Positions 31,810-60,543 of a stretch of 64,000 nucleotides of DNA are shown piece after piece (the stretch's first letter is position 1; every line of letters begins with the position of its first letter). The notes under the pieces were generated by a model. The model saw only the letters and a list, made by a program, of their open reading frames with translations. It was not told where the DNA came from and ran no database searches. A program made the translations under genes and the position numbers. The stretch spans positions 4,226 through 68,225 of the forward strand of contig JAUXWT010000085.1 in the NCBI GenBank assembly GCA_030681475.1. The letters are read 5' to 3'. Source of the DNA: Bacteroidales bacterium. Its GTDB lineage: Bacteria > Bacteroidota > Bacteroidia > Bacteroidales > FEN-979.

Positions 31810-31816
31810 AGGTTCA

Positions 31817-37640: not shown

Positions 37641-37674
37641 AAAAGGCGGTTCTCCACAAGGAATCGCCTTTTTT
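37641..37674. terminator. Bidirectional rho-independent terminator between tonB and the convergent SDR gene
   Basis: AAAAGGCGGTTC-tccacaag-GAATCGCCTTTT. The 10-bp stem has one G-U pair. It is flanked by an A-run on one side and a T-run on the other. Confidence 0.6.
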
Positions 37675-38443
37675 AAATATATTGTCCCCCATCCACCCTG
37701 ATCACCTCTCCCGTTATATGACGTGCCAGATCGGAACATAAGAACACAACCAGGTGAGCGATATCATCAGGCTTGCCGGGACTTTTCAGAACCATTTCAT
37801 CCAAGGCTGCTGCACGAACAGTTTCGCCTGCATTTTTAACCATTGCGGTCTCAATCATCCCGGGGGCAATGGCATTCACGTTGACATTATATTTTCCCAG
37901 TTCCCTCGCGACGGACTTCGTCAGACCAATAATTCCTGCTTTTGATGCAGAATAATTTGCCTGACCGAATTTACCCCTGAGCCCGTTGATGGAGGTGATA
38001 TTGACGATCTTTCCTGAGCGTTGCTCACGGAAGATGGGCGCCACGGCCCGGGTAAAATTGAAATAGCCCTTAAGATTAACTCGAATAACATCATCCCACT
38101 GTTCCTCGCTCATTTTCCAGATCACCCCATCACGGTTAATGCCCGCATTGTTAACGAGAATGTCGATCCTGCCGAACTGATCGTTCACTTTCTGAACGGT
38201 ATTTAATGCGGCAGTAAAATCCGAGGTATCTGCCTTGATAAACATAGCTTTACCGCCGGGTTTTGAAATGTTGTGAAGCAGGCCTGTTGCTTCTTCTTCC
38301 GTTTTAAGGTCGATCATGGCGACCTGGGCCCCGCACCGGGCTAACTCTAGGCTGATCGCTGCTCCGATTCCCGAAATACCACCGGTTACAATTGCTGAAT
38401 GACCTCTCAGATCAGGGTACGTAGAATTAAATTGTTGTTCCAT
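37673..38443 (-). CDS. SDR-family oxidoreductase (FabG-like)
   Basis: TGGISGIGAA cofactor motif and YSASKAG catalytic motif. Confidence 0.8.
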   Translation of the reverse strand: MEQQFNSTYPDLRGHSAIVTGGISGIGAAISLELARCGAQVAMIDLKTEEEATGLLHNISKPGGKAMFIKADTSDFTAALNTVQKVNDQFGRIDILVNNAGINRDGVIWKMSEEQWDDVIRVNLKGYFNFTRAVAPIFREQRSGKIVNITSINGLRGKFGQANYSASKAGIIGLTKSVARELGKYNVNVNAIAPGMIETAMVKNAGETVRAAALDEMVLKSPGKPDDIAHLVVFLCSDLARHITGEVIRVDGGQYI

Positions 38444-38453
38444 CTCTGCTATT

Positions 38454-41261
38454 TTAATCCCTTTTTTTCTTTATCCCGTTTATGGCTTCAAGGACGCGCT
38501 GCGGCGTGATTGGAAGATCAAAAATCCGAACACCGATAGCGTCGGCTACTGCATTGGCAATGGCGCCAAGGATGGGGAGGGTGGCGCCTTCACCTACCTC
38601 CTTTGCCCCATATGGACCTGCAGGTTCATAGCTGTCTACAATAGTTGAATGAATTTCAGGCATGTCGGCCGAAGTAGCAATCAAATAATTGTGAAGATCT
38701 GCATTGATCATCTTTCCCCGGTTGTCAAACACCTCATTTTCAAAGAGCGCTTCGCTCATCCCCATCAGCACGGCGCCTTCAGCCTGTCCTTCAACAAGCA
38801 TAGGGTTCACCGCAGTGCCGCAATCATGGGCATCCCAGAAATTAAGAACCTTTACCTTCCCGGTCTCCATATCAACCTCGACTTCGCAAACGGTTGCTGA
38901 AAAAGAATAAGCCGGAGAAGTTCCGATGGCGGCGCCCTTGTAGTTGCCGCCTAATCCTTCCGGTGGCGAGTAATGACCTTTTCCGAGAAGGGGACCCTTT
39001 TTGGAGAAATGTGCAAACCCAGCCTGTTCCCAAGGAATGAAAGTGGAAGGACCAGTTTTAAGAAAAATCTTATTATCCTTGACCTCTAATAGTCCGGCAT
39101 CCAGGTTCATGATCTCCGCTGCCTGTTTCAATATCTGTTTTTTTACATCCTCCCCGGCCATTTTGCAGGCATTTCCGCCCATCAGGGTTACCCTGCTCGA
39201 ATAGGCGCCGAACCCGATCGGTGTGAGATCGCTGTCGGCAGAAACAACACTGATCCGGTCGTAGGAGATCCCCATTGCTTCGCAGGCAGCCATGGCAAGC
39301 ACGGTATCCGATCCCTGGCCGATGTCGGCATCCCCAATGAACAATACCGCCCTGGAACCATCTTCCAGAACCTTGATGGTGGCGCTTGAATGAGGGAACT
39401 TTGAGCGATAAATCGGATAACCCGCTCCGGAAACAAATCCGCCACAGCCAATCCCGATGCCACGGCCTATGGGAAGCTTCCCTTTTTTCTGGTTCCAGCC
39501 GGACTTATTCCGAACATCTTCTATGCAGGCTTTAAATTCGCAGGAATGGATTTCAAGATCATTACAGGTATTGTACTCAGGTGTCATGGCATTCTTCAGC
39601 CTGATATCAATGGAATCCATCCCGAGATCATCAGCGATCATGGTCAGAAGCGATTCGAAGGCAAACCTGGGATGCGGACAGCCATGCCCGCGAAAAGCGC
39701 CACAAGGCGGAAGGTTGGTGTTGACCCGAAAGCCATCGTACTTGTAATTCGGGAATTTATATAATGTTGTAATCATTGAACCAGCGTAATAGGTTGATAC
39801 GATCCCAAAACTGGAATAGGCGCCCCCTTCAAGAACGGCTTTCTGTTTGACGGCAGTGATGGTACCGTCTTTCTTTACCCCGATCTTCAGGTCAATATAT
39901 TGTTTGTGGCGGCCCCTGCCGAACAGGTACATCTCTTCGCGGCTGAAGCGCATTTTTACTGCACATCCTGCAATCCTTGCCAGAAAAATTGACATCACCT
40001 CGATGGTTGTTGTCGCCGCCTTTGCTCCAAACCCACCGCCACAGTTAGTCATGATCACCCTGATATCGCCCAGCGGGATACCAAGTATATGCGACAACTG
40101 GTGGTGAACATAATGGACCACCTGTGTCGAAGTATGGAGGGTCACCCTGCCATGGCGGTCCCATTCAGCAATGGAACAGTGTGGTTCCATGGGGTTCTGG
40201 TACGTACGGTTGCCTGTGAACCGTTCCTCGCGGATGTGGTCCGCCTCTGCAAATCCTTTTTCTATATCCCCGAAATGGTGATCAACGTGGGTGTTGATGT
40301 TATTCTCGTATTTATCGTCGAACAATCGCGGAGCGCCATCTTTCATGGCCTCTATCGGATCGAAAACAGCAGGAAGTTCTTCGTACGCCACTTTAATCAA
40401 AGCAAGGGCCCGGTAGCAGGTTTCTTCATCAATAGCTGCAACGGCAGCCACCACATCGCCCACGAACCGCACTTTACCCTTGGCCAGAATTGTTTCATCA
40501 TAGCGTGGGGGGGAAGTGCCCCACCGTACGTCGGGGACATCGGCGCCCGTAAGCACCACCTTTACTCCCGCAAGCGCTTTTGCCTTGCTGGTATCTATTG
40601 AAACGATTTTTGCATGAGGCACGGCGCTGAGGAGCAACTTCCCGTAAATCATGTTAGGAAGGGAGATATCGTCGGTGTAAACTGCCCGGCCCGTGGCTTT
40701 GTCGGGGGCATCGATTTTGGGTAGTCGTTTCCCAACGACGGACAAGTCGATGGTTGATTTTTGCGGCATGAACTCCAGTTCAGGTGGTTTTTTACCGTTG
40801 AGGTAATCCCTTGCTGTTTCAACGGCCTCGATGATCTTTGTATAACCGGTACACCTGCATAAATTGCCGCTTAATTCCTCCTTGATCTCTTCTTTAGTGG
40901 GGATTGGATATTTGTCCAGGATGCTTTTCGTCCGCATGATCATCCCCGGGGTGCAATATCCGCACTGGATCGCTCCTTTTTCAACATAAGCGCGCTGGAT
41001 CGGGTGCAGTTCCGTTCCTGTCGCCAATCCCTCGATCGTTTCCACCTTACTCCCGGCAGCCTCCACCGCGAGTACCAGACAGGCGTTCACTGCTTTCCCA
41101 TCCATGATGACCGTGCACGCCCCGCAATCACCCAGTTCACAGCCCTTTTTCGTTCCTGTAAGTTTCAGTTCGTCCCTTAACAGATCAAGCAGTGTCGCAT
41201 TCGCTTTCACCGCTACTTCGAATTCATCTCCGTTTACATTGATCGTAATAATTTGTTTCAT
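38454..41261 (-). CDS. Xanthine-dehydrogenase-family molybdoenzyme, fused 2x[2Fe-2S] (CoxS-like) and molybdopterin (CoxL-like) subunits
   Basis: 935 aa. The N-terminus has GCELGDCGACTV, then CGYCTPGMIM and CRCTGY (two [2Fe-2S] sites). An aldehyde-oxidase/XDH a/b-hammerhead and a Mo-binding domain follow. Confidence 0.8.
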   Translation of the reverse strand: MKQIITINVNGDEFEVAVKANATLLDLLRDELKLTGTKKGCELGDCGACTVIMDGKAVNACLVLAVEAAGSKVETIEGLATGTELHPIQRAYVEKGAIQCGYCTPGMIMRTKSILDKYPIPTKEEIKEELSGNLCRCTGYTKIIEAVETARDYLNGKKPPELEFMPQKSTIDLSVVGKRLPKIDAPDKATGRAVYTDDISLPNMIYGKLLLSAVPHAKIVSIDTSKAKALAGVKVVLTGADVPDVRWGTSPPRYDETILAKGKVRFVGDVVAAVAAIDEETCYRALALIKVAYEELPAVFDPIEAMKDGAPRLFDDKYENNINTHVDHHFGDIEKGFAEADHIREERFTGNRTYQNPMEPHCSIAEWDRHGRVTLHTSTQVVHYVHHQLSHILGIPLGDIRVIMTNCGGGFGAKAATTTIEVMSIFLARIAGCAVKMRFSREEMYLFGRGRHKQYIDLKIGVKKDGTITAVKQKAVLEGGAYSSFGIVSTYYAGSMITTLYKFPNYKYDGFRVNTNLPPCGAFRGHGCPHPRFAFESLLTMIADDLGMDSIDIRLKNAMTPEYNTCNDLEIHSCEFKACIEDVRNKSGWNQKKGKLPIGRGIGIGCGGFVSGAGYPIYRSKFPHSSATIKVLEDGSRAVLFIGDADIGQGSDTVLAMAACEAMGISYDRISVVSADSDLTPIGFGAYSSRVTLMGGNACKMAGEDVKKQILKQAAEIMNLDAGLLEVKDNKIFLKTGPSTFIPWEQAGFAHFSKKGPLLGKGHYSPPEGLGGNYKGAAIGTSPAYSFSATVCEVEVDMETGKVKVLNFWDAHDCGTAVNPMLVEGQAEGAVLMGMSEALFENEVFDNRGKMINADLHNYLIATSADMPEIHSTIVDSYEPAGPYGAKEVGEGATLPILGAIANAVADAIGVRIFDLPITPQRVLEAINGIKKKRD

Positions 41262-41283
41262 CCTCTTTTATGATTTTTATACC

Positions 41284-42207
41284 TCATCCCCCCTGACCCC
41301 CTTCCCCAACAAGGGAAGGGGGAGAGTGCCTCCCTGCCAATTCAATCGCCCTTCTAATCGCTCGTTGTACCAATACCTTAAGCACATCCCGCCGGTATTG
41401 CGCTCCCCCCCGGATATCGTCAATCGGAATGGAGTCCCTGACCGCAGCAGCTCCCAACTCTTCCTGAAAGAACTGATTTTCAACAAATTCTGAAACTTTG
41501 ATTCCACGGAGCATTTCTGTTGCCTGGCGGCTGATTTTAGGGGTCGGCGCTACGGCGCCTATTACGATGCAGGCATCCGCACAGGCGCCATCTGCAACAC
41601 GTACCATCGCAGCCACTGAAACCACCGAGATGGATCCGGCTTCGCGCAAACCAAACTTCTCATAACAGGCGCCTGTACCGGGTCCGGGCTTCGGAACAAT
41701 GATCTTTGTAACAAGTTCTCCGGTCGTGAGGATGGTTTTCTTATTGAAGGTGAAAAAATCATTCAGCGGTACAGTTCTTACATTTTCAGAACCAGCGATT
41801 TCAACCGAGGCATTCAGCGACAGCAGTACCGGGGCGGTATCGCAGCAGGAGGCTGCAGTGCAGATATTTCCCCCGATCGTCCCTGTATTTCTGACCTGGT
41901 CGGACCCGATCTTTGAAGTCGCTTCAACCAATGAAGGGGCAATTTTACCAACGAGCGCGGAGGCAATGATTTCACTATGGGTTGTGCAGGCGCCTATGAT
42001 GAGATTTTCTTCATCTTCCGTGATCAGTTTCAATTCCCTGATCTTTACAAGAGAGATCACGTTCTCATGCATCCTGACGCCCTTTTTCATTTCAACCAGC
42101 AGATCAGTTCCGCCTGCCATGGCAACAGCATTTGGTTTCTGCCCAAGCAGAAGGATCGCATCCTGAATGGAGACCGGCTGGTGGAAATTAAAGTCTGGTA
42201 AGTACAT
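41284..42207 (-). CDS. XDH/CODH-family FAD-binding subunit (CoxM-like)
   Basis: MAGGTDLLVEMK and GTIGGNIC motifs. The last 14 codons or so (HSPPSLVGEGGQGG) are read from a G/C-tract repeat copy. Confidence 0.75.
   Translation of the reverse strand: MYLPDFNFHQPVSIQDAILLLGQKPNAVAMAGGTDLLVEMKKGVRMHENVISLVKIRELKLITEDEENLIIGACTTHSEIIASALVGKIAPSLVEATSKIGSDQVRNTGTIGGNICTAASCCDTAPVLLSLNASVEIAGSENVRTVPLNDFFTFNKKTILTTGELVTKIIVPKPGPGTGACYEKFGLREAGSISVVSVAAMVRVADGACADACIVIGAVAPTPKISRQATEMLRGIKVSEFVENQFFQEELGAAAVRDSIPIDDIRGGAQYRRDVLKVLVQRAIRRAIELAGRHSPPSLVGEGGQGG
41285..41325. repeat. G/C-tract palindromic repeat copy overlapping the 3' end of the FAD-subunit gene
   Basis: CATCCCCCCTGACCCCCTTCCCC-aacaa-GGGAAGGGGG. 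The 10-bp stem is perfect. It is nearly identical (in inverted orientation) to the right half of the copy at 47214-47300. Confidence 0.8.
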
Positions 42208-42222
42208 GTCTTATTTTTTTAT

Positions 42223-43401
42223 TTATTCAAATGCACTTTCACCGGTAATGTCATGGCCGGTGATCAGGAGGTGAATATCATGAGTACCTTCATAGGTGAT
42301 CACAGACTCAAGGTTCATCATGTGCCGCATCATCGGAAAGTCGCCGGTAATTCCCATGGCGCCAAGAACCTGGCGTGATTCCCTGGCAATATCGAGAGCC
42401 ATTTTTACATTATTCCTTTTGGCCATGGAAATCTGTGCCGGTGTTGCCCGGTCGTCGTTGCGTAAAATGCCGAGACGCCAGGCCAGCAACTGGGCTTTGG
42501 TGATCTCTGTCAGCATCTCGGCCAGCTTTTTTTGTGTCAGCTGAAAAGCAGCGATGGGTTTGCCGAACTGGAGGCGCTCCTTAGAATATTGAAGCGCCGT
42601 GTCGTAACAATCCATTGCCGCTCCGATCACACCCCAGGCGATACCGTACCTGGCCGAGCTGAGGCAACTGAGCGGTCCCTTCAGCCCTTTAACACCCGGC
42701 AGGAGATTTTCCTTGGGAACCTTTACATTATCGAATACCAACTCGCCAGTGGAAGAGGAACGCAGCGACCATTTTCTAAGTGTTTCAGGAGAGGTGAACC
42801 CATGCATACCCCGTTCCACGATCAATCCCCTTACCGTGCCCGTTTCGTCCTTGGCCCATACCACACTGATGTCGGCGATCGGGGCATTGGTTATCCACAT
42901 TTTTGCGCCATTCAACAGGAAATATTCGCCCTCATCGGTAAACCGGCTAAGCATGCGTCCCGGATCTGATCCATGGTTGGGTTCAGTCAGACCGAATGCG
43001 CCAATCATATCTCCGGAAGCCAATTGTGGCAGGTATTTCCTTTTTTGTTCTTCAGTCCCGTATTTATATATGGGGTACATTACCAGAGATGATTGAACTG
43101 AAGCCATTGAACGAATGCTTGAATCTCCTCTTTCAAGCTCCTGCATGATCAGTCCGTAGGAAACCTGATCCAGTCCGGAACCGCCATATTCAGCAGGGAT
43201 ATAGGGGCCGAAAGCGCCAATCGCTCCTAATTCTTTGACAAGGTGACGGGGGAATTCATGATTCTGATTCGCTTCATCAATGATGGGTATTACCGCCCTG
43301 TTGACCCAATCGCGTATCGCTCCGCGAACTAATTTGTGTTCATCTGTTAATAGTTCATCTACAAGGTAATAATCAGGTGATTTATATCTGATGGTGGCCA
43401 T
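42223..43401 (-). CDS. gcdH: Glutaryl-CoA dehydrogenase
   Basis: 392-aa acyl-CoA dehydrogenase with GCDH-typical blocks GAFGLTEPNHGSDP and ITYEGTHDIHLLITG. Confidence 0.8.
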   Translation of the reverse strand: MATIRYKSPDYYLVDELLTDEHKLVRGAIRDWVNRAVIPIIDEANQNHEFPRHLVKELGAIGAFGPYIPAEYGGSGLDQVSYGLIMQELERGDSSIRSMASVQSSLVMYPIYKYGTEEQKRKYLPQLASGDMIGAFGLTEPNHGSDPGRMLSRFTDEGEYFLLNGAKMWITNAPIADISVVWAKDETGTVRGLIVERGMHGFTSPETLRKWSLRSSSTGELVFDNVKVPKENLLPGVKGLKGPLSCLSSARYGIAWGVIGAAMDCYDTALQYSKERLQFGKPIAAFQLTQKKLAEMLTEITKAQLLAWRLGILRNDDRATPAQISMAKRNNVKMALDIARESRQVLGAMGITGDFPMMRHMMNLESVITYEGTHDIHLLITGHDITGESAFE

Positions 43402-43426
43402 TTTTTTGAGTTAAATAATCATGTTT

Positions 43427-45892
43427 TCAGAGATTGTAGAGATCCTTATAATTGTTCTCCCAACCAGGCAGCTTGCCCTGAATTGAAAGGTTGAGCGGTG
43501 GATTCTGTCCTCCGATGTTGAGCAATCTCAATAATGCCGGGGAAATATAGGGATTTTTTTCGGGATTGAATGTTTCCCCGGTTTCCCGGGTCAGCCGTTC
43601 ATCGTTGCAACCTTCTGCCAAAGCGTTCTTTTTCTGGAGGTTATACAGGGCAACTGCATAGGGTACAGCATATTTTTGTTTAAGCCTGGCCAATTCGAAT
43701 GCCCGCTCGAGTAAATCATGTTCTTCCTCGCCGATCCCGTTTGAAAGACCCAGTTCATAAGCACGGGTGGCCGTTAGTCCCTGGAGGAAAAGTTCATCGA
43801 TAAGGGATTCCCCAAACCCAAGGCGCACCAGCTCCTGCACGGCGCCAAATCCACCCAGGATCCCATATTCGATCTCGGGTTGGTTGTAATTTTTTTTGAC
43901 ACGGAAAACACTTTGCCGTTTCAGGGAGTCAAATTCAACCCCATGTAGTACAAGGTCAAACCGCTGGTTGAGAAAGTAAGTGAATTCTGCGCCACCGCCC
44001 CATTTCTCCCCGAAAACACCGATGGTCCAGACCGGCATTTCCTGGATGAACCGGAACAGCCTCATCCCGGCTTTCGTGAAATAGGACGCATCGTCTTCAC
44101 CAAGAAATTGATACCCGGTTTTTGCATCAAACCATCCCTTGTTGAACTGCCTTGCATCGGCTCCGAGCATTCGCATTCCCGTGCCGGAAGCGGTAAATAG
44201 TAAGGAGCCCAAAACACCTTTTTCATACAGTCCGACCGAAATCCCGATCGCATGGTCAAGCTGGTCGAGTGTGTTCCGGTTCCACACATTACCGCGAAGC
44301 GGATTATCAAAAATTATGGAGGCGACCCTGTCTTTCCTGGATGGATAAATGAACCGGAGATCGTTATAGTAAATATCCATCTCGCCGGTAACAAAATTAC
44401 GCAGACTGACCGGAGTACCATATATTCTGCCGTAACCAAGCAGGTTTGACCAGCCTTTGTTTTTCATGGTGAATAAAAACGATGATTTATCTTTTCGGGG
44501 ACCAATCTTTCCTTCCAGGTCAAAAAGTTCGGCCCTGTCAGGATTTTCAATCCCTGATTTTTTGATCAACCCGATGAAACCATCAATTCCAAAATAATCC
44601 AGGAATTTGTCAATGATCTCGCACAAACCGTATTTGAAGCGGAGACCTGTTTTCGTGGAAGAGTCAATGTCGGCTGCCGTGGCATAATTGTCCTGTATAA
44701 GATCCAGCGCATAAAGCATGATTGGTATTACATATCTCCTGAATGTTTTGCCTCCTTTGTCATCGGATTCGGCAATGTGTATAAGTCCACTGATGCTTTT
44801 TATGGCTGATTCCCTGTAATCGAGGGCCGCGGCCTCCGATAATGACCAGTAATCAAGGTGATTGATCCCGGCGATTTCAACATAGGATTTACCTCCCGGG
44901 TCATAGACTCCTGTGATCTTTTCTCTGTTTGTTGCTCCCGACCACTTAAAAAAACCCTCTTTGTCTTTTGAAGAGATCCCTGTTTTCCCCGATTTCTCCA
45001 GATCTTCGATCCACGACGGGTAATGTCTGCCATTCTGGTTGTACAGGATCCTGAGCCGGTCGTTTGCGGGCAGTGCCTGTCCTAAATGTTTTGCACATTC
45101 GGTATAAGGCATATGACCTGTCCGGTCGAGCACCTGGAATGGGTTGGCCGTAAGTAATTCAAACACCTGCGGTAATTCCACGAGATCTTGTCCGGTCTTA
45201 ACATCCCAGTGAATAATGGCTCCCATCCCTTCGAAAATGGGATCGGCCACATAACCATGATGGTCGTTCCGCAAGGCAATGACTTTCTTTTCGAGCGCCT
45301 GTTCTGCAAAGGCAACTCCAGCGGTAAACGTCTCTTCCGATGCAAATTTCCCCTTCATCACATCGAACAGGCGGTTTGCATGGAATGGGAAATATCCATG
45401 GCCGGTCAGAAATTTATCTCGGAGAAACATATCGTCAAAAAGAACAGCCAGTTCGGCGGTGGTATGGGATGATGTGTTGGAAAAGATAAATATCAGCTTT
45501 TTGGGGTCGGCATATTTCTCAATGTTGGCAAAAATCATTTTTTTGACATCGATCTGTTCAGTGGCCGCTTCCCAGATGACCTCTGTCTGGCCAAGAAGGG
45601 CGAAATCGCGGGTATAGGTAACCCTGGCGAGGCACGCCTCCTTCTGTTCCGCCAGCATCCTGCCGCCATCTGCAAGCCCTGCAAAATAACTGCCGATCTC
45701 ACCCCTGGCCCTTTCCAGCGCACTGTCGGCGATATCGATGAAAATAACATCATACCCTGTTTTATTGAGGATATCGATCCCTATCCCAATTCCCATTGTT
45801 CCGGAGCCGACGACAGCGATTTTTTTAATGTTTTTCAGTTTCGCAACCTCCTTCTGGAGTATCTTATTCCCGTATGAAAAAACAGTTCCCAT
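43427..45892 (-). CDS. Fused 3-hydroxyacyl-CoA dehydrogenase (N-terminal) / enoyl-CoA hydratase-like (C-terminal) protein
   Basis: 821 aa. Rossmann motif VVGSGTMGIGIG at the N-terminus and a crotonase-fold-like C-terminal third. Confidence 0.7.
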   Translation of the reverse strand: MGTVFSYGNKILQKEVAKLKNIKKIAVVGSGTMGIGIGIDILNKTGYDVIFIDIADSALERARGEIGSYFAGLADGGRMLAEQKEACLARVTYTRDFALLGQTEVIWEAATEQIDVKKMIFANIEKYADPKKLIFIFSNTSSHTTAELAVLFDDMFLRDKFLTGHGYFPFHANRLFDVMKGKFASEETFTAGVAFAEQALEKKVIALRNDHHGYVADPIFEGMGAIIHWDVKTGQDLVELPQVFELLTANPFQVLDRTGHMPYTECAKHLGQALPANDRLRILYNQNGRHYPSWIEDLEKSGKTGISSKDKEGFFKWSGATNREKITGVYDPGGKSYVEIAGINHLDYWSLSEAAALDYRESAIKSISGLIHIAESDDKGGKTFRRYVIPIMLYALDLIQDNYATAADIDSSTKTGLRFKYGLCEIIDKFLDYFGIDGFIGLIKKSGIENPDRAELFDLEGKIGPRKDKSSFLFTMKNKGWSNLLGYGRIYGTPVSLRNFVTGEMDIYYNDLRFIYPSRKDRVASIIFDNPLRGNVWNRNTLDQLDHAIGISVGLYEKGVLGSLLFTASGTGMRMLGADARQFNKGWFDAKTGYQFLGEDDASYFTKAGMRLFRFIQEMPVWTIGVFGEKWGGGAEFTYFLNQRFDLVLHGVEFDSLKRQSVFRVKKNYNQPEIEYGILGGFGAVQELVRLGFGESLIDELFLQGLTATRAYELGLSNGIGEEEHDLLERAFELARLKQKYAVPYAVALYNLQKKNALAEGCNDERLTRETGETFNPEKNPYISPALLRLLNIGGQNPPLNLSIQGKLPGWENNYKDLYNL

Positions 45893-45927
45893 GATATTTT
45901 TAATTGGGTAATTATTATTTCTATAGT

Positions 45928-47196: not shown

Positions 47197-47213
47197 ATCT
47201 TTAATAGTTTAAT

Positions 47214-47300
47214 GACCCCACCCTTAATCCATCCCCCAAAAGGGAGGGACTTATTCCCCCTTCCCTTGCTGGGGAAAGGGGTCAGGGGGGATGGGGTCCA
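47214..47300. repeat. Composite G/C-tract repeat (two units) between thiolase and activase genes, overlapping the activase 3' end
   Basis: GACCCCACCCTTAATCCATCCCCCAAAAGGGAGGGAC + CCCCCTTCCC-ttgctg-GGGAAAGGGGTCAGGGGGGATGGGGTC. The last 15 or so activase codons (DPIPPDPFPQQGKGE) are repeat-derived. Confidence 0.8.
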
Positions 47301-48054: not shown

Positions 48055-48108
48055 TTATAATTTTAGATTTACGGTTTTACGATTTACGATTTGGTTTACA
48101 ATCCATGG

Positions 48109-49362: not shown

Positions 49363-49391
49363 AGTTCGGCATCAGTTTTGTGCAACATTAC

Positions 49392-51450: not shown

Positions 51451-51605
51451 GAGGGTGTTTCAAAAGTCTTTTAACCGCAAAGTACGCCAAGTTTTTCGCA
51501 GAGTTCGCAAAGAGTATACTGCTGAATATCTGACCTTTGTGTCCTATGTGTATTAACTTTGTGTCCTTTGTGGTTATATTTTTTCATTTTTTGAGACACC
51601 CTCTC
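51451..51605. mobile_element. MITE-like palindromic element, copy 2 (about 20-nt internal duplication relative to copy 1)
   Basis: GAGGGTGTTTCAAAAGTCTTTTAACCGCAAAG ... CTTTGTGGTTATATTTTTTCATTTTTTGAGACACCCTCTC. It lies in the oah-had gap and abuts the had stop codon. Confidence 0.7.
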
Positions 51606-52666: not shown

Positions 52667-52702
52667 AATCAGTTGTTTAAAAGGTGATACTTTAAAAGGA
52701 TC

Positions 52703-53662: not shown

Positions 53663-53692
53663 GTTCTTTATTTTAATTAAAAATGGTTTTGC

Positions 53693-55774
53693 TTAAAGTA
53701 TGATTCTTGCATCAACAACACATATTTCATCGCCGGTTGCAAAAAGCGGATTGAGGTCTGTCTCTTTAATCCTGGGGAAATCATTGCAAAGCATGGATAT
53801 CCGCCGGATGATTTCAACGGTCTTTTCCTTGTTGATCCCTTTCTCACCCCTGTATCCATGTATCAGGGGCGCTGCCTTGATTGCACCGATCATTTCGATC
53901 GCCTCTTCATCACTCACCGGACTGATAGTAAAAGCAATATCCTTTAAAACCTCGACGAAAATGCCCCCAAGGCCGAACATAATAATATGTCCGACACCTT
54001 CAACTGCTTTTGCGCCTATGATCAGCTCCATTCCTTTTGGAAGGAATTTCTGCACTAAAAAATTAATACCGCTGCCAAGGTTCCTGATCATTGCTTCGGC
54101 CACAGCGGATGCTTCTTTTGCGTCCCGGATATTCATGACAACACCACCAGCGTCGCTCTTGTGAATGATCGTTTCGGAATCGGCTTTTATCACTACCGGG
54201 TACCCTAACTCACCAGCCGATGTAACGACTCCATTCACATCGTTTGCAACACGCCAGGGGGCAACAGGTACCCGGTATGCTTCCAGAATGTTATAAACCT
54301 CTTTTGCAGTAAGGATTTCCCTTTCCTGCGACCGGGCATTGTCAAGGATTGACCTGACGGCATCTGGATTTACATCTGTGAACTTTTTTACGGAGCCCTG
54401 TTTTGCAGACCTGATGTTATTGTACCGGACCAGTGAATGAAGCGCACGAGCGGCTGTTTCGGCAAAATCAAAGCAAGGAATCTCCCCATCCTTAAGAATT
54501 TTTGTAGTACCGCCCCATTTTTGTTTATCGGTCATGTAATTACAAACGATCGGTTTTTTGGTATTCTTTGAGGCAGCAGCGATCTCACGGGCAACATTTT
54601 CACAATCGACGAAGGGGGGGGTGACAAAATTCAGGTATATGCTGTCGAATTGCGGCTCATTCACCATCACTTCCAGCGCGCTTTTAAAATGTGCCGGACC
54701 GGCTGTTGCGACAACATCCAGGGGGTTCCGTATGGAAGCCGATTCAAGCATGGTACCTTTCAGGATCTGTGCTGCCTCTTCTGAAAGTGGCGGTATTTCC
54801 AAGCCGCAACTTACCAGTTCATCGATGGCAATGACTGATGGTCCACCAGTGTTCGTAATAATACCCACTTTATTTCCCGTGGGAACCGGTTGTGAAGAAA
54901 GCGCCACTGCTGCATGACATAGATCTTCCTGGCTGTTAAAAGTGAGGATTCCGGCTTTTTTATAGATGAGATCAAGGGAGATGTTGCCAGCCAGTCCTCC
55001 GATATGCGAACGGGAGGCTTCTGCTCCCTTTTCGGTCCGGCCGGCTGTGATGGCAAGGACTGGCTTTCGGGCAGTTACCTGTTTTGCAACAGAGATAAAC
55101 TCATGCGGGTTGTCCAGGCTTTCCGCATACAGGACGATCGCCCTTGTTTCTTCGTCCTTCCCAAAATAACTGAGTATTTCCGTGATGGATACATCTGAGC
55201 CGTTGCCATTGGAGGCGTACATTCTTTGACCAATGCCCATATCATAAAATGCTTGCATGATCACGGCCCCAACTCCACCACTCTGCGCCACCACGGAGAT
55301 GTGGCCGGGTTCAGGGTAAGTAAAAGTGAAGTTGCAGTAAGCATTTATTCCGGGATCTGAGTTGATGATCCCCTGGCAGTTCGGGCCAACGATCCGGATA
55401 CCGTATTTTCGTGCCCTGGCAAGAAAATCATTCTCCAATGCCTCTCCTTCGGCACCCATTTCCTTAAACCCGGCCGTATTGATGATGATCGCCCTGACTC
55501 CTTTCTTCCCGCAGTTTTCCACCTCTTCCGGGACAAATGGAGGAGGGATTACGATGTGCGCCAGATCAACATGCCCGGGCACATCCAGTATTGATGGATA
55601 AGCTTTTAATCCCCTGATCTCATCCACTTTAGGGTTGACCGGATACACCGGCCCCCTGAATTGATAATGAAGCAGGTTTTTAATGATCACATTCCCGATC
55701 GAAAGTTCTTTGGCTGAAGCTCCGATCAGTGCAACCGCCTTTGGCCTGAATAATGAATCAAGGTTGTCGTTCAT
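53693..55774 (-). CDS. ADP-forming acyl-CoA synthetase (fused alpha-beta, NDP-forming acetate--CoA ligase family)
   Basis: 693 aa. N-terminal CoA-binding LFRPKAVALIGAS, phosphohistidine loop SHIGGLAG, and a C-terminal ATP-grasp domain. Confidence 0.8.
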   Translation of the reverse strand: MNDNLDSLFRPKAVALIGASAKELSIGNVIIKNLLHYQFRGPVYPVNPKVDEIRGLKAYPSILDVPGHVDLAHIVIPPPFVPEEVENCGKKGVRAIIINTAGFKEMGAEGEALENDFLARARKYGIRIVGPNCQGIINSDPGINAYCNFTFTYPEPGHISVVAQSGGVGAVIMQAFYDMGIGQRMYASNGNGSDVSITEILSYFGKDEETRAIVLYAESLDNPHEFISVAKQVTARKPVLAITAGRTEKGAEASRSHIGGLAGNISLDLIYKKAGILTFNSQEDLCHAAVALSSQPVPTGNKVGIITNTGGPSVIAIDELVSCGLEIPPLSEEAAQILKGTMLESASIRNPLDVVATAGPAHFKSALEVMVNEPQFDSIYLNFVTPPFVDCENVAREIAAASKNTKKPIVCNYMTDKQKWGGTTKILKDGEIPCFDFAETAARALHSLVRYNNIRSAKQGSVKKFTDVNPDAVRSILDNARSQEREILTAKEVYNILEAYRVPVAPWRVANDVNGVVTSAGELGYPVVIKADSETIIHKSDAGGVVMNIRDAKEASAVAEAMIRNLGSGINFLVQKFLPKGMELIIGAKAVEGVGHIIMFGLGGIFVEVLKDIAFTISPVSDEEAIEMIGAIKAAPLIHGYRGEKGINKEKTVEIIRRISMLCNDFPRIKETDLNPLFATGDEICVVDARIIL

Positions 55775-55779
55775 TGATT

Positions 55780-56598
55780 TTAATTAAGTTTATAATACCG
55801 GAACCCGCCCCATAAGGCGGCGCCAATGGCGCCTGCATAAACTGAATCAGGGTGTGTTCTGATTTCAAGATCAAGATTGCTCTCATCAATAAGTTCCCGC
55901 ACCGCCTGGATCATACCAATATTCATCGCCATTCCCCCGGTAAGGGCAACAGGCGATGTCGCTTTCAGCGATGAAAGCAGCTTTACAATCTTATTGGCGA
56001 TAGAAAGATGAATTCCCTTGATGATATCTGGTGTGGAAATTCCCCTTGACACCATATTGATGACGTCGGTTTCGGCAAGAACAGAACAAATGCCCGAAGG
56101 GGTTTCAGGTGCGGTTGCTTTCATGGAAGTTGCCCCCACATCTTCAATCGCCAGACCAAGGTACCTTGAGATGTTCTCAATGAACTGGCCCGAACCGGAT
56201 GCGCACTGCCCTGTCATTTTATAATCGAGTACCCTGCCCAGTTCATTGATCTTGATGGCCCTAACATAAAGCGCGCCCATGTCGACAACAGTCAAAGCGC
56301 CGGGGTTAAGGAAAACACCTCCTTTCGCGTGGGTGGTCATGCTGTAAAAATGACCGCGCTTCCGCTGGAGCATCTCGCCTTCACCGGTTGAGGCCAGGTA
56401 GGCAATATCGCTGTATTTTAAATTGTTCTTCTCCAGCAAGTGATCAATGACCTGGTCGGCGACCAACCCGGGATTCCTTTTCCTGATCTTCTCGATCTCT
56501 TTGTCAATGATCACCGGAGTGTCGGAATATGACATCAGTATAGCCTTGATGAGGCTGCTTCCCACATCGACACCCAATGTATAGATTTGTTGGTTCAT
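55780..56598 (-). CDS. bcrD: Benzoyl-CoA reductase (class I) ATPase subunit D-like (BcrD/BadG)
   Basis: 272-aa ASKHA ATPase with LGVDVGSSLIKA, VDMGALY, cluster-ligand motifs GQCASGSGQF and GICSVLAETD. It is the fourth gene of a C-B-A-D ordered set. Confidence 0.75.
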   Translation of the reverse strand: MNQQIYTLGVDVGSSLIKAILMSYSDTPVIIDKEIEKIRKRNPGLVADQVIDHLLEKNNLKYSDIAYLASTGEGEMLQRKRGHFYSMTTHAKGGVFLNPGALTVVDMGALYVRAIKINELGRVLDYKMTGQCASGSGQFIENISRYLGLAIEDVGATSMKATAPETPSGICSVLAETDVINMVSRGISTPDIIKGIHLSIANKIVKLLSSLKATSPVALTGGMAMNIGMIQAVRELIDESNLDLEIRTHPDSVYAGAIGAALWGGFRYYKLN

Positions 56599-56601
56599 AA
56601 T

Positions 56602-57975
56602 TTAACTTCTTCTTGCAAACATGGCCCCGCCGAGGGCGCCCATGAATATTGAATCGGTATGTACATTGATTTTTATATCTTTTCCGTAGTTCTGAAGCAC
56701 CAATTCTGAAACATACTTCAGTACTGCCTGGTTCCGGGCCACACCCCCGGTAAATGTGAATTCGTTGCGAACCCCGCCCGAACGCGCAAGCAGCGACATG
56801 GCACGCATAACGATGGCACGGTGCAGCCCGGCGAGAATGTCACTCCGTTTTTGTCCGACATTAAGCAATTCCCTGATCTCCGCTGCCGCAAACACGGTGC
56901 AGGTGGAACAGATGTTTACCTCATTGGTTGCTTCAACAGCCAATGGACCGAGTTCATTCAAAGAGATGTTGAATTCATCAGCGATATATCCGAGGTATCT
57001 TCCGCAACCGGCAGCGCAACGGTCGTTCATATAAAAACTTGTTACAAGTCCATGACTGTCGGCCTGGATGGCCTTGGTGTCCTGCCCCCCGATGTCGAGT
57101 ACCGTCCGTGTTCCCGGAAAAACAGCATGTGCCCCGAAAGCGTGGCAAAGGATCTCCGACCGGATCGATTTTTCGGGGAAAGGCAGCAATGCCCTGCCAT
57201 ATCCCGTACCTACCATATTGGTGATGTGAATGTCGAGGTTCGCTATAAAAGTAATGTGACCTTTCAGGGAGTCGTAGATTTGCTTGTAATTGCCTTTCAG
57301 GAGGTTCATCTCACTGTCGAAACCCACACCTGTTTCATCGGGTGTGAAATCATCCATAAAGGCATATTTTTCATTCAGCAGCTCCATCGACTGGTGAACC
57401 AACTCCCTGAAATCATATTCGGTCAGCTCATTTTCCACATGGGTGATGCTCTTGTCATAAACAAGCATCATGGACTCAAAAAAAGCGCCCGGAAGTGCAT
57501 TAACCTCTTTATTATATTTTTCGCTTACAATATCCCGGAAGAACTGATTCTTCTGGCCCAGGTTCCCGTTCAGGTATTCATCCAGGATAACAGGCCCGAT
57601 CTCCCTGACGATCCGGTCAACAAACCCGGAGATCTTCTCTTTCTTTTCATCCCTGAAGGTTTCTTCAATCGTATCCCGGAACTGCACATTCAACCGGTCG
57701 AGCCTTCGTTTGAACTGGAGGTACTGGAAAACCGATTCAACGTCTTTGATGTACCTTTTATATTCCGGTTTGTGTTCAATCTCATCCTCCAGCTTCATTT
57801 TCAGCAGGGAGAACCTGGCATTGTAAATGGCTTCAAGACGTGCAATTTCGGTTGCAACGGTATAGTTCGCCCTGGTATTTGTTATCCCCCGCCCGATGAT
57901 ACGATCATTATCATCAATGATGATCGCTTTGGATGTAGTTGACCCAAGGTCTATTCCCAGAAAATATTTTTTCAT
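56602..57975 (-). CDS. bcrA: Benzoyl-CoA reductase (class I) ATPase subunit A-like (BcrA/BadF)
   Basis: 457-aa ASKHA ATPase with a roughly 190-aa insertion between GIDLGSTTSKA (residues 7-17) and GTGYGR (residues 256-261). It also has DIGGQDTK, NDRCAAGCGRY and CSTCTVFAAAE. Confidence 0.75.
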   Translation of the reverse strand: MKKYFLGIDLGSTTSKAIIIDDNDRIIGRGITNTRANYTVATEIARLEAIYNARFSLLKMKLEDEIEHKPEYKRYIKDVESVFQYLQFKRRLDRLNVQFRDTIEETFRDEKKEKISGFVDRIVREIGPVILDEYLNGNLGQKNQFFRDIVSEKYNKEVNALPGAFFESMMLVYDKSITHVENELTEYDFRELVHQSMELLNEKYAFMDDFTPDETGVGFDSEMNLLKGNYKQIYDSLKGHITFIANLDIHITNMVGTGYGRALLPFPEKSIRSEILCHAFGAHAVFPGTRTVLDIGGQDTKAIQADSHGLVTSFYMNDRCAAGCGRYLGYIADEFNISLNELGPLAVEATNEVNICSTCTVFAAAEIRELLNVGQKRSDILAGLHRAIVMRAMSLLARSGGVRNEFTFTGGVARNQAVLKYVSELVLQNYGKDIKINVHTDSIFMGALGGAMFARRS

Positions 57976-58043
57976 TGATGACCCAATTAATTATACCAAT
58001 TCTGCTCCTATAGCAGGTATCCGACAATATCTCAATTGCAGTT

Positions 58044-59327
58044 TTACGGCCGGTTCAGGATCATCTTCCGCTGTTCAAGCATCTGGAAAAATGATTCAAG
58101 CCGGTTTTTGATATTCGAATAGGAGAAATACCTCGGATCGACCAGGTCGGATTCGATGAACCCTGTCGGAATTTCGAGTTTTCGCTCCAGTTGTTGCATC
58201 ATCATTAATTGTCCTGCAGAGAATGAGTTACAACTCTTGATTGAATTGACCAGAAAGCCATCAGCGTGGTAGTCGGTGATGCATTTCGACAGCAGATCGA
58301 CCCGTTGTTGAAGATTGAGGTTGGTATAACAGTTCATGCAGTATTCTGCCAGGCTTTCAAGAGGTTTATCGGGATTGACACGGAATCCCATATCGTAAAC
58401 TCCACCCACTTTTGTGTAAGAGGAGGCAACGATTACGGCGCCCATGTCATAAAAAAGTTTCCAGAATTCACGGAAATGCGTCCAATTGGGAGGACCTTCG
58501 ACTACGAGGCGGAACCGCTCCTCTTCCATCTCTCCTTCGGGAGTGATCGGGCCAAGTTTTTTTTCGATACGGGTAAGAATTTCTTTGTAGAGTTCAGCAT
58601 AATAATCCACGGCTTCAGGAGTTCCCCGGAAGCCGCTGTTGATGGGCCCGATGTAATAAACACCGGCAAAATAGGCATCGATGGGAGAGGGACGGTGTTT
58701 GGTGGTGTCGAAGATCTTTACGATATAGTCTTCCACCTTCGAGGAGTTCCGGAGAATGGATTTTAGTTTTTCTTCATCATACTTGTTCCCCGATACCTGT
58801 TCCATTTTCGGGATTACCTCCTCCTTTAATTGCTTGACCATATAGGCCGTCATTTCGGGAGTGATCTTATGGGCCTCCTGGTAAGGCGTGTGGAGCAGCG
58901 CAACCGGTACGCCCGGATAGAGGCGCTCAAGGGTCTCAAACCATTTCAGGAAAGTAAAACAACCGGTATAGCTCAACAGCAGCAGATCAGGGTTGGGGAT
59001 CTTTTCGCCGGTTGGTCCGATGTTCCCGTTGAGCATCATGCCGACATCACATTTCACATAAGTACATACGTCCTCGGAATGTCCATGCTGTTCAGCTTCG
59101 CGGATATACCCTTCGGATTTCTTACGCATACCCGACTGCAATGCATTGAGTTCGGGGTAAACCGGGAGCATGTCGAAGGAGAGGATCAGCTCAGAGATGT
59201 TGCCGGGAACAAAGGTATAAACCACTTTCTTCCCGGTCTCTTTTACAGTGCCAAGCTCCTTGAAAAGACTGGCGATCATCTCTTTCTGGATGATTACACT
59301 TCGTTCTTTAGCTGCTTCTTTTGACAT
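58044..59327 (-). CDS. bcrB: Benzoyl-CoA reductase (class I) subunit B-like (BcrB/BadE; dehydratase-fold)
   Basis: 427 aa, 2-hydroxyacyl-CoA dehydratase/BcrB fold (FVPGNISE, EDVCTYVKCD, YTGCFTF, IKSCNSFS). Confidence 0.75.
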   Translation of the reverse strand: MSKEAAKERSVIIQKEMIASLFKELGTVKETGKKVVYTFVPGNISELILSFDMLPVYPELNALQSGMRKKSEGYIREAEQHGHSEDVCTYVKCDVGMMLNGNIGPTGEKIPNPDLLLLSYTGCFTFLKWFETLERLYPGVPVALLHTPYQEAHKITPEMTAYMVKQLKEEVIPKMEQVSGNKYDEEKLKSILRNSSKVEDYIVKIFDTTKHRPSPIDAYFAGVYYIGPINSGFRGTPEAVDYYAELYKEILTRIEKKLGPITPEGEMEEERFRLVVEGPPNWTHFREFWKLFYDMGAVIVASSYTKVGGVYDMGFRVNPDKPLESLAEYCMNCYTNLNLQQRVDLLSKCITDYHADGFLVNSIKSCNSFSAGQLMMMQQLERKLEIPTGFIESDLVDPRYFSYSNIKNRLESFFQMLEQRKMILNRP

Positions 59328-59349
59328 TAGCCACTCTTTTCAGCAAGAT

Positions 59350-60543
59350 TTATAAACTAAATGCGGGAACCGGTTCGTCCCAGAGCTTTATCGAATCAGA
59401 GAAGGTTCCCACCTGTTCCTTGATCACCTTGAACTGGCCCGTATTTTCGCTGTACAGAAAACTGATGAACCGGATGTTCTTATCATTGCACTCCTTCTGC
59501 AGGATGGGGTGATCAAGCAGAGCCGGGTCACAGAAACTGGGAGCAGCAAAAATGACCCCGTCAACTTTCCTGTATCGGATCAGGTTGAGCAGGCGCACCT
59601 CTTTTGGATTGCCGACATCAAAAACCGAAGAGGAGAAGGTGCTTTTTTCCAGATATGCACTGGTGACAGACTCAAGTGGGTCGTTGCTGTTCGTCTCTAT
59701 ATCTCCCTGTATCCATCGGGCACCCAGCAGGAAATCGTCCTCGACAATATAGCAGCCCGCCAGCTCAATGGTCCGGATAAGACCAACCGGAGGCTGTTCG
59801 CAAAATGCGCCGATCACAAGCACACGGATCTTGTCCATCGGGTCTCCTGACTCCTGACTGATCAACCGGACGACATTTGTAAGAATTTCGTTGTGTTCCT
59901 CCACCGGAAGAACATATCCTGCGCGAACAATATGGTAAAGATCCGCGGCAGTCATTCTCCATGGAAACTCCTGACGGATATTATAAAGCTGGCTGATAAG
60001 ACTCCGGTTGATATTGAACAGACTTATCGAATGGTTGAGTCTTTCGGTGGTCACTTCTACACCGTTCAGTTTATAAACCTCATCCAGAACGGTCTGAAGT
60101 TCATGCCGGTAAAAAGTCCCGCCGATATCGGGTTTGAAATTCTGCGGGAAGTCGAGATATTTGACAAATTTACCTTCGCCCATGATCTGAAACATGCCGG
60201 AAAGGTTTCGTATAACATCACAGATGGATGGAAAAATAAAACCATCGAAACCCTCGAAATGTTTATCAATTGCGAGTTCGATGATACTCCTGGGCATGTG
60301 GCAGATATAGGACTGGTAATAGGCATCGCCCCTGATGATGAGTTTTTTATCCCCGCCCCCGAGGATCCCCACTGCCAATCCGTTGGCCGCATGGATGATC
60401 TCCCGTGGAAAATAGATGGGCAGGTGACCAACGATGATCCGGCCTTCCCCCTGTGACTTCCACTCCCTTGCTCTTGTAAAGGAAAGATCAAAAGCCAGTT
60501 CTTCACATCGGGCGACTATTTCTTTCAGGTTGTTCAGATGCAT
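59350..60543 (-). CDS. bcrC: Benzoyl-CoA reductase (class I) subunit C-like (BcrC/BadD; dehydratase-fold)
   Basis: 397 aa of the same fold (GHLPIYFPREI, SYICHMPR, PSICDVIRN, APSFCDP). First gene of the set. Confidence 0.75.
   Translation of the reverse strand: MHLNNLKEIVARCEELAFDLSFTRAREWKSQGEGRIIVGHLPIYFPREIIHAANGLAVGILGGGDKKLIIRGDAYYQSYICHMPRSIIELAIDKHFEGFDGFIFPSICDVIRNLSGMFQIMGEGKFVKYLDFPQNFKPDIGGTFYRHELQTVLDEVYKLNGVEVTTERLNHSISLFNINRSLISQLYNIRQEFPWRMTAADLYHIVRAGYVLPVEEHNEILTNVVRLISQESGDPMDKIRVLVIGAFCEQPPVGLIRTIELAGCYIVEDDFLLGARWIQGDIETNSNDPLESVTSAYLEKSTFSSSVFDVGNPKEVRLLNLIRYRKVDGVIFAAPSFCDPALLDHPILQKECNDKNIRFISFLYSENTGQFKVIKEQVGTFSDSIKLWDEPVPAFSL

Follow-up and report, generated by a model that had tools for sequence, protein, structure and literature searches.

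Anaerobic degradation of aromatic compounds has been elucidated in Proteobacteria, Desulfobacterota, Firmicutes, and a few archaea, and the usual rule is that class I benzoyl-coenzyme A (CoA) reductases occur in facultative anaerobes and class II reductases in obligate anaerobes. The locus described here raises the question of which of these enzymes an uncultured member of the Bacteroidales would use to dearomatize benzoyl-CoA. We examined a 64,000-nucleotide stretch of DNA, hereafter called the window, from Bacteroidales bacterium (FEN-979) (assembly GCA_030681475.1, contig JAUXWT010000085.1, positions 4,226–68,225 of the forward strand). A preliminary description had drawn attention to a gene array at 37673–60543 that would lead from benzoyl-CoA to acetyl-CoA in a Bacteroidota genome. 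Family assignments and taxonomic evidence support such a near-complete route, and a second reductase, missed entirely in that description, lies just past the end of the array. On the plus strand, divergent from the class I gene bcrC across a 302-bp spacer, are bamB (60846–62879), bamC (62869–63420), and the start of bamD. By family assignment, the two known classes of benzoyl-CoA reductase are both represented in the window, in head-to-head orientation. We read it as the probable central aromatic-acid catabolic locus of this organism, consisting of a class I operon and divergent class II genes, and we put the probability of this reading at roughly 78%.

The array is filled by 17 co-directional open reading frames (ORFs) of at least 80 residues on the minus strand, with bcrC first and a short-chain dehydrogenase/reductase (SDR) gene last. 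Its coordinates and tight, co-directional packing had been given correctly, although 20 genes had been counted. Intergenic gaps are 3–68 bp, with two exceptions of 177 and 187 bp. The pathway enzymes listed in the preliminary description are all present; the list was incomplete, however, as it lacked a 4-hydroxybenzoyl-CoA reductase-like molybdenum (Mo) enzyme (38454–42207), three accessory genes (an ApbA/PanE-like gene, an HGD-D-like gene, and the gene for its activase), the terminal SDR (37673–38443), and the class II reductase.

The class I reductase is encoded at 55780–60543, in the order C-B-A-D. Family scores were taken against NCBIfam models with their equivalog cut-offs, and structural comparisons were made against PDB sequences. 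BcrC (59350–60543) scores 458 bits with TIGR02263 (cut-off 421), BcrB (58044–59327) scores 641 bits with TIGR02260 (cut-off 487), and BcrD (55780–56598) scores 323 bits with TIGR02261 (cut-off 313). The best match of BcrA (56602–57975) is TIGR02259 at 425 bits, in two stretches and below the cut-off of 578. The earlier assignment of bcrCBAD to dearomatization is thereby borne out above cut-off for B, C, and D, and as a best match for A. The four genes supply two HGD-D-family subunits (BcrB and BcrC) and two BcrAD/BadFG-family ATPase subunits (BcrA and BcrD), and the predicted activity of BcrCBAD is the ATP-coupled, ferredoxin-dependent reduction of benzoyl-CoA to the 1,5-dienoyl-CoA. BcrA has an insertion of ~195 residues (approximately residues 55–250), and MbdQ from the PDB aligns to residues 3–54 and 250–455 only. 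A long insertion is typical of Thauera-type BcrA. Since bzd-type models score only 75–149 bits on the Bcr subunits, we assign this class I enzyme to the Thauera type and not the Azoarcus/bzd type; the Azoarcus-type PDB entries MbdO and MbdQ reach 197 and 210 bits, respectively. All four bcr ORFs are intact. They are 86–96% identical to those of a closely related locus (L002), as compared with 83–92% for the lower-pathway genes, so the reductase is as well conserved as the rest of the pathway and shows no sign of decay.

The cluster resembles the class I cluster of Thauera aromatica in its reductase gene order, in the long BcrA insertion, in the presence of dch, had, and oah, and in passing the TIGR equivalog models for B, C, D, had, and oah. 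It differs in its host, which is a member of the Betaproteobacteria there and of the Bacteroidales here, and in having no ferredoxin gene, whereas the Thauera cluster includes fdx. In the Bacteroidales operon, an ADP-forming synthetase gene, a ketopantoate reductase-like gene, and an HGD-D/activase pair are also interleaved, and the operon additionally holds the lower pathway down to glutaryl-CoA dehydrogenase.

Across the spacer, bamB (60846–62879, plus strand) encodes the tungsten-pterin catalytic subunit, with 677 residues from the likely start at ATG 60846 (MRYAETG...); the ORF tool had placed the start at GTG 60816. BamB scores 1257 bits against the crystallized Geobacter metallireducens enzyme (PDB 4z3w_A) over residues 1–651 at ~83% identity. 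It belongs to the AOR family, and the alignment conserves both the tungsten ligand Cys322 (MMKC) and the [4Fe-4S] motif CxxCxxxC (CYNCPMKC). Directly downstream, bamC (62869–63420, plus strand) encodes the Fe-S electron-transfer subunit (256 bits with 4z3w_E). It is followed by the 5′ part of bamD (63457–64000, plus strand), which is truncated by the window end and encodes an HdrD-like protein with two CxxCxxCxxxCP motifs in its translation. An independently assembled contig that extends past the window (L001, described below) goes on with a complete 384-residue CCG-domain protein and at least 607 residues of the next gene. The genes resemble BamBCDEFGHI of G. metallireducens in the sequence and cofactor motifs of BamB, in the BamC match, and in the order B-C-D followed by a further gene; a relative (L082) has the full B–I set with matching domain content. 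Unlike the G. metallireducens protein, the Bacteroidales BamB has a C-terminal extension of ~26 residues, and its genes share a promoter region of the Bacteroidota type with a class I operon. The window itself holds only B, C, and part of D.

How common is this dual arrangement? Close BcrB proteins are encoded by 186 GTDB species representatives. We surveyed about 165 related loci overall, among them the best 80 of these 186 (75–96% BcrB identity, all metagenome-assembled genomes, MAGs) and 80 JGI metagenome loci selected by BamB. When 19 window proteins were compared by tblastn with the 80 genome loci, none of these loci had bamB within 10 kb of bcrB. None of the 80 BamB metagenome loci contains bcrCBAD, and the Bacteroidales lower pathway lies beside bamB only in locus L086. 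Both reductases are thus adjacent only in the window organism among the about 165 loci. The closest relatives (L002–L013 and L017–L020) share the order bcrCBAD-synthetase-ApbA-had-oah-dch-HGD-D. The closest BamB (P0121, 89% identity) comes from a Bacteroidales MAG, and in its locus, L082, the genes synthetase-ApbA-had-oah-dch-HGD-D-activase-thiolase are oriented divergently to a complete bamBCDEFGHI set, and the 22-kb locus lacks bcr genes. In another Bacteroidota MAG (L084), bamB–I is linked to the fused Mo-enzyme gene, to a gene pair for a 2-oxoacid:ferredoxin oxidoreductase, and to genes for an SDR and a thiolase. The full set of electron-bifurcation modules BamDEFGHI (HdrD-, HdrA-, MvhD-, NuoE-, NuoF-, and NuoG-like) was seen in L082 and L084 only. 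The two-subunit oxidoreductase of L084 (5319–7675 of that locus) sits between the fused Mo-enzyme gene and bamB and is a candidate ferredoxin-reducing system; the window has none.

Genomes with both reductase classes have been described before. Class I-type and class II genes with different substrates have been reported in strain NaphS2 (PMC2988823), and both classes in two mangrove Desulfobacterota MAGs (PMC11704145). These are Desulfobacterota hosts, unlike the Bacteroidales bacterium; the class I-type enzyme of NaphS2 is of the Azoarcus (bzd) type and belongs to the naphthoyl-CoA pathway, and in the available excerpts neither source describes a head-to-head arrangement with a shared control region. 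We found no paper on a head-to-head bcr/bam locus in the literature searched, coverage of which was incomplete.

The two sets of genes face each other across the 302-bp spacer at 60544–60845, between bcrC and bamB. The only minus-strand TAnnTTTG box in any gap of the array is the one upstream of bcrC (60569–60576), and the 17 genes read as a unit with a single promoter-like, Bacteroidota-type −7 box. Plus-strand boxes of the same kind are present at 60746 and 60776, on the bamB side. A palindrome, CTCATA-N18-TATGAG (CTCATACATAAATACATTCATTGATATGAG, 60593–60622), separates the bcrC −7 box from the remainder of the spacer; it occurs once in the window against 0.03 occurrences expected by chance and is a candidate operator. 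The bcrC-proximal block (~60557–60625), comprising the TACTTTTG −7 box and the palindrome, is kept upstream of bcrC in L002, L003, and L010; in L082 it immediately precedes the synthetase gene. The window, L082, and L086 share the conserved bamB-proximal block, TTTTACTTTTG...AGGCAG..CCGGA.

These shared blocks raise the question of whether the junction is real, as a class I-only and a class II-only strain could have been joined during assembly through the common ~60-nucleotide promoter block. Such a join would be permitted by the placement of that block, which precedes bcrC in relatives with class I alone and the synthetase gene in L082, where class II stands alone. The dual arrangement, in addition, has been seen in just one sample (run SRR13727517), probably the window's own. 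However, Logan contigs from this run match the window without a single difference wherever they overlap it. One of them, L085, covers 31789–47601 (15,813 nucleotides, 100%), from ExbB-ExbD-TonB through the SDR and Mo-enzyme genes to the activase gene. The other, L001, covers 49493 to past 64000 (14,400 nucleotides of overlap, 100%); it comes from a separate assembly pipeline and links dch, bcrC, the spacer, and bamB–bamD without a break. Both critical junctions, TonB/SDR and bcrC/bamB, are therefore spanned. In an assembly graph, a mixture of two strains should break the contig at the shared repeat. Moreover, the 134 nucleotides that lie between the two spacer blocks in the window have no counterpart in L082. 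Taken as a whole, an artefact of this kind seems highly improbable, and we proceed with the dual locus as the probable arrangement.

A neighbor-joining tree of the synthetase, ApbA, Had, and Oah (1,704 ungapped aligned columns, 300 bootstrap replicates) places the window in a clade with L082, L002, and L010 at 90% bootstrap support. At the locus, the window has both classes, L082 has class II only, and L002 and L010 have class I only. Because the closest relatives carry either class I or class II at the same locus and share the promoter blocks, the pattern suggests that the reductase is an exchangeable module at a common lower-pathway operon and promoter block. In the simplest reading, L082 would represent a window-like state minus bcrCBAD. 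Loci with class I alone have a far wider distribution, and the gain of bam by such a locus, followed by the loss of bcrCBAD in one branch, is therefore the probable course; the reverse sequence of events seems less likely.

We next consider the host. The best 80 of the 186 representatives, on contigs of up to 1.5 Mb, are almost all Bacteroidota (Bacteroidales, Lentimicrobiaceae, Saprospiraceae, Flavobacteriales, Vicingaceae, and Chitinophagales); the remainder are a few Ignavibacteriota, Chlorobiota, Calditrichota, or KSB1, one labelled Gammaproteobacteria, and a few unclassified names. Many of the names among related MAGs point to stratified lakes, groundwater, and fen. BcrB falls among more than 100 database clusters at 82–96% identity, and the named ones come from Bacteroidales, Bacteroidota, Ignavibacteria, or Chlorobi MAGs. 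The rarity implied in the preliminary description was thus overstated: the cluster occurs widely, and public MAGs already include automatic annotations of it. The literature is sparser: the mangrove study calls Bacteroidota “rarely reported” for this function (PMC11704145), and bcrABCD in a Krumholzibacteriota MAG (FCB superphylum) was described as a rare genetic potential (PMC10936416).

In the window, the proteins ExbB and NuoM from the backbone and Oah from the operon share 90%-identity clusters with proteins whose source MAGs are named Bacteroidales or Bacteroidota. With the TAnnTTTG boxes, they uphold the Bacteroidota affiliation proposed earlier. The type IX secretion system (T9SS) cargo that was also cited is weaker, as the tail of the protein at 10187–11275 scores 22 bits, below the cut-off of 27; in close relatives, Por_Secre_tail (T9SS) genes lie beside bcrC on the same contigs. 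The nucleotide composition does not single out the operon. The most deviant block is bamBC (third-position GC 0.63, tetranucleotide r of 0.54–0.65 to the backbone), which is only 3.2 kb long, and the backbone used for comparison is itself heterogeneous (relative synonymous codon usage r of 0.55 between nuo and the first 21 kb). No conserved backbone neighbors were found within 10 kb of bcrB in relatives, and the TonB beside bcrC in one of them (L004) is only 48% identical to the TonB of the window. No mobility genes flank the aromatic operon; an IS200-like Y1 transposase gene (4381–4854) lies ~33 kb away. A chimeric contig, which the preliminary description had named as a possible source of error, is unlikely: Logan contigs span the junctions, the best 80 relatives are nearly all Bacteroidota, Ignavibacteriota, or Chlorobiota MAGs, and backbone proteins cluster with those of Bacteroidales/Bacteroidota.

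If benzoyl-CoA is reduced in this organism, the next steps are well provided for. Had (6-hydroxycyclohex-1-ene-1-carbonyl-CoA dehydrogenase, 51605–52666) scores 441 bits with TIGR03201 (cut-off 339), and Oah (6-oxocyclohex-1-ene-1-carbonyl-CoA hydrolase, 50326–51417) scores 590 bits with TIGR03200 (cut-off 464). Dch, the probable cyclohexa-1,5-diene-1-carbonyl-CoA hydratase (49540–50313), has TIGR03189 as its top match at 214 bits, below the cut-off of 292.5; the next family reaches 144 bits. All three genes had been recognized before, with the caution that they might belong to generic beta-oxidation families. The scores of Had and Oah with pathway-specific equivalogs, and the sub-threshold top match of Dch, distinguish them from generic crotonases and alcohol dehydrogenases. 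Dch, Had, and Oah would convert the reduced product to 3-hydroxypimelyl-CoA.

The predicted beta-oxidation module agrees with the earlier account. A fusion of 3-hydroxyacyl-CoA dehydrogenase and enoyl-CoA hydratase (821 residues, 43427–45892) has an N-terminal dehydrogenase match and a weak C-terminal hydratase match in NCBIfam, and a thiolase (acetyl-CoA C-acyltransferase, 45928–47196) scores 289 bits with TIGR01930 (cut-off 240.55). The SDR that ends the operon (37673–38443) matches FabG-type (3-oxoacyl reductase-like) subfamilies of NCBIfam and has orthologues at 64–67% identity within the aromatic clusters L084, L024, L041, and L068. Together, these enzymes would yield glutaryl-CoA. The acyl-CoA dehydrogenase at 42223–43401 has no good NCBIfam match. 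It scores 416–431 bits with the PDB entries 1sir, 2eba, and 3d6b (431 with 1sir), as opposed to 236 bits with the non-decarboxylating enzyme from Desulfococcus (3mpi) and ~236 bits with short-chain acyl-CoA dehydrogenases. The glutaryl-CoA dehydrogenase reported earlier is therefore kept and specified as the decarboxylating type, so a separate glutaconyl-CoA decarboxylase should not be needed. It would produce crotonyl-CoA, and from there acetyl-CoA.

Which aromatic acids enter this pathway? The Mo enzyme between the SDR and glutaryl-CoA dehydrogenase genes offers a clue. Its gamma ([2Fe-2S]) and alpha (molybdenum cofactor) subunits are fused in one protein of 935 residues (38454–41261), which scores 948 bits with TIGR03194 over residues 180–926 (cut-off 995). 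The alpha part is closest to HcrA of Thauera aromatica (PDB 1rm6_A, 598 bits, next-best family 360), and the gamma part is closest to HcrC (1rm6_C, 160 bits). The same fused gene is found in aromatic clusters L016, L041, L044, L045, and L084. The medium subunit, which binds flavin adenine dinucleotide (FAD), has 307 residues (41284–42207) and is less Hcr-like. Its best matches are XdhB (216 bits) and the CO dehydrogenase subunit CutM (127 bits), and it scores only 132 bits with TIGR03195 (cut-off 405) and 68 bits with Thauera HcrB (1rm6_B), over residues 3–121 only. An extra [4Fe-4S] loop is characteristic of Thauera HcrB. No four-Cys loop was evident in the translated FAD subunit, as judged without a residue-by-residue alignment to HcrB, and the loop is probably absent. 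Compared with Thauera HcrCAB, the Bacteroidales enzyme is thus alike in alpha and gamma and different in having these two in one polypeptide and in its CutM/XdhB-like beta subunit. If it acts as its alpha and gamma parts suggest, the Mo enzyme would dehydroxylate 4-hydroxybenzoyl-CoA and feed 4-hydroxybenzoate-type substrates into benzoyl-CoA.

An enzyme of this kind in the operon also suggests substituted substrates, and with them a division of labor in which BamB–I would be the true benzoyl-CoA reductase and BcrCBAD would act on other aryl-CoA esters such as hydroxy-, methyl-, or halo-benzoyl-CoA. BcrA stays below its equivalog cut-off, as such a division would allow, and in NaphS2, BamB–I is induced on benzoate and the class I-type NcrABCD on naphthalene (PMC2988823). 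However, bcrB, bcrC, and bcrD all pass the cut-offs for benzoyl-CoA reductase, and in most relatives bcrCBAD is the sole reductase beside dch, had, and oah, where it must serve benzoyl-CoA if the pathway works. We regard this division by substrate as rather doubtful. In the reading that we prefer, benzoyl-CoA would be reduced by either BcrCBAD or BamB–I, and the choice between them could follow energy status, tungsten or selenium supply, or ring substituents.

Before any of these steps, the aromatic acid would have to be activated to its CoA ester. As reported earlier, the window shows no benzoate-CoA ligase and no regulator; we detected neither an AMP-forming ligase motif nor a regulator there. 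A strict PROSITE-style pattern and a looser P-loop expression found no AMP-forming ligase in the window or in 83 related loci, which is a weak negative, as the search had no positive control. The operon does encode a nucleoside diphosphate (ADP)-forming acyl-CoA synthetase of 693 residues with fused alpha and beta parts (53693–55774). Its closest structure is 8wzu, an ADP-forming 4-hydroxybutyrate-CoA ligase (432 bits). It matches 8wzu and archaeal NDP-forming synthetases over its full length and in the same fused alpha-beta order; it differs from them in its location in an aromatic operon, and its NCBIfam score of 515 bits, far under the equivalog cut-off of 1300, leaves the substrate unassigned. 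Of the 80 bcr loci, 28 have an orthologue no more than 10 kb from bcrB, and in L082 and L086 an orthologue adjoins bamB. The enzyme could serve either aromatic-acid activation or ATP recovery from a CoA thioester, and we consider the two equally open. The preliminary description had correctly identified the synthetase and assigned it to ATP gain from acetyl-CoA, which is one of these two. Its position directly after bcrD or beside bamB, the ligase physiology of 8wzu, and the lack of AMP-ligase motifs in the 83 related loci are compatible with activation but do not prove it. The aryl-CoA ligases reviewed in PMC8388817 are all adenylate-forming, and no paper on an ADP-forming benzoate-CoA ligase was found in the literature searched, of which coverage was incomplete.

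ATP recovery by the synthetase would fit a fermentative or reverse mode, as in Syntrophus, rather than respiratory catabolism. The conservation of the ADP-forming synthetase in the operon, the names of related MAGs that point to stratified lakes, groundwater, and fen, and the association of class II enzymes with obligate anaerobes (PMC10936416) are in line with this mode. On the other hand, the glutaryl-CoA dehydrogenase is predicted to be of the decarboxylating type, genes for an 11-subunit complex I lie 6 kb away, and the closest solved relative of the synthetase, 8wzu, is physiologically a ligase. Decarboxylating glutaryl-CoA dehydrogenase is effectively irreversible and passes its electrons to the electron-transfer flavoprotein (ETF) and quinone. 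We therefore consider a fermentative mode distinctly unlikely and retain the catabolic reading, in which aromatic acids would be degraded to acetyl-CoA.

Three further genes of the operon have no counterpart in the pathway as outlined so far. The ketopantoate reductase (ApbA/PanE)-family oxidoreductase (52703–53662) scores 164 bits with TIGR00745 (cut-off 141), has the Pfam domains ApbA and ApbA_C, and is matched at 42–93% identity in most related bcr loci. A single HGD-D-family protein (48109–49362, PF06050), similar to 2-hydroxyacyl-CoA dehydratase alpha subunits, is structurally closest to the 2-hydroxyisocaproyl-CoA dehydratase alpha subunit HadB (3o3m_A, 177 bits), ahead of MbdO (114 bits). 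No gene for a beta subunit was found nearby. Its gene is kept beside dch in class I-only and class II-only relatives alike. The adjacent BcrAD/BadFG-family ATPase (47251–48054; TIGR00241, 143 bits, cut-off 125) is its putative activase, and the orthologue in class II-only L082 is 84% identical. The ApbA/PanE-like gene and the HGD-D/activase pair are thus kept whichever reductase is present. Together with the synthetase, they could form a feeder for arylpyruvates, from 2-oxoacid to 2-hydroxyacyl-CoA to enoyl-CoA.

Extending this idea, the locus may encode an energy-thrifty and flexible pathway that combines ADP-forming activation, a class I/II switch from one control region, and an arylpyruvate/aryl-lactate feeder. 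This proposal, built from gene content, is tentative, and we think it unlikely to be right. If it were true, activation would cost one ATP equivalent instead of two, the organism would switch between the ATP-driven class I enzyme and the tungsten-dependent, bifurcating class II enzyme from one shared control region, and the feeder would channel arylpyruvates and aryl-lactates from phenylalanine/tyrosine or phenylpropanoid breakdown into benzoyl-CoA and 4-hydroxybenzoyl-CoA.

Several observations weigh against the catabolic locus as we read it. No ETF, ferredoxin, ferredoxin-reducing 2-oxoacid oxidoreductase, or AMP-forming ligase was found in the window, and the class I enzyme needs ferredoxin and a 2-oxoacid oxidoreductase, as glutaryl-CoA dehydrogenase needs ETF. 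The array gaps hold no small extra genes such as a ferredoxin by ORF listing or by a scan for CxxCxxCxxxCP, which in all six frames of the window matches only a 353-residue Fe-S protein (6231–7292), NuoI, and BamD. As the FAD subunit resembles HcrB only up to residue 121, the dehydroxylase assignment of the Mo enzyme is uncertain. The genes bamE–I lie beyond the window, and after bamC the contig L001 shows only bamD and part of one further gene. Positions 47602–49492 have no cover from the second assembly, and the HGD-D-like protein encoded there was not found on record elsewhere. Here the linkage rests on the window's own assembly, on the thiolase-activase-HGD-D-dch order in L082, and on the dch-HGD-D-activase order in the P0004 contig; L024 matches the same gene set by co-occurrence. 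The single-class relatives might hold the other reductase elsewhere in their genomes. Finally, neither a Bacteroidota isolate with the pathway nor a biochemical description was found in the literature searched, with incomplete coverage.

The two long gaps of the array, of 177 and 187 bp, are each occupied by one copy of a repeat element. The copies, at 49397–49522 and 51454–51600, are 126–147 bp long and 86% identical, with terminal inverted repeats of 13–14 nucleotides (GGGTGTCTCAAAA / TTTTGAGACACCC). The window contains no further copies. Neither copy is present at the corresponding position in L082, where the gap corresponding to copy 1 is 26 bp. An Rfam scan of the whole window gave no matches, so the two elements are not a described RNA family. 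They look like miniature inverted-repeat transposable elements or repetitive extragenic palindromes.

Away from the aromatic genes, the window holds a complex I (nuo) row at 21154–31079. The NuoH-like ORF comes straight after the NuoD-like one, leaving no space for nuoE, nuoF, or nuoG, in agreement with the NuoEFG-less complex I described earlier; NuoN was identified by Pfam and NuoM by source names. A protein of 1447 residues (11532–15875) fuses an AcrB-type RND transporter (residues 5–1036) to an OEP/TolC-like domain, and an HlyD-type adaptor gene follows. An AbiEii-like nucleotidyltransferase toxin (835–1851) and an upstream DUF6088/AbiEi-like partner (1848–2516) form a type IV toxin-antitoxin/abortive-infection pair. 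Two alanine racemase-family genes lie in tandem (18752–19909 and 19912–20994) after an M20 peptidase gene, and the second has an N-terminal domain match only.

The components of the aromatic cluster were already known. As judged from gene content and comparison of loci, what is new is the dual, divergent class I/class II locus with single-class sister loci, the fused Mo enzyme, and the conserved accessory genes. Among uncultured Bacteroidota and allied phyla, class I clusters of the Thauera type are common, and this guild is hardly mentioned in the literature searched. The three conserved accessory genes and the ADP-forming synthetase become candidates for biochemical study. With its nearest relatives carrying a single class at the same promoter, the dual lineage would offer a natural system in which to follow selection for ATP-driven versus tungsten-dependent dearomatization and the exchange of reductase modules.

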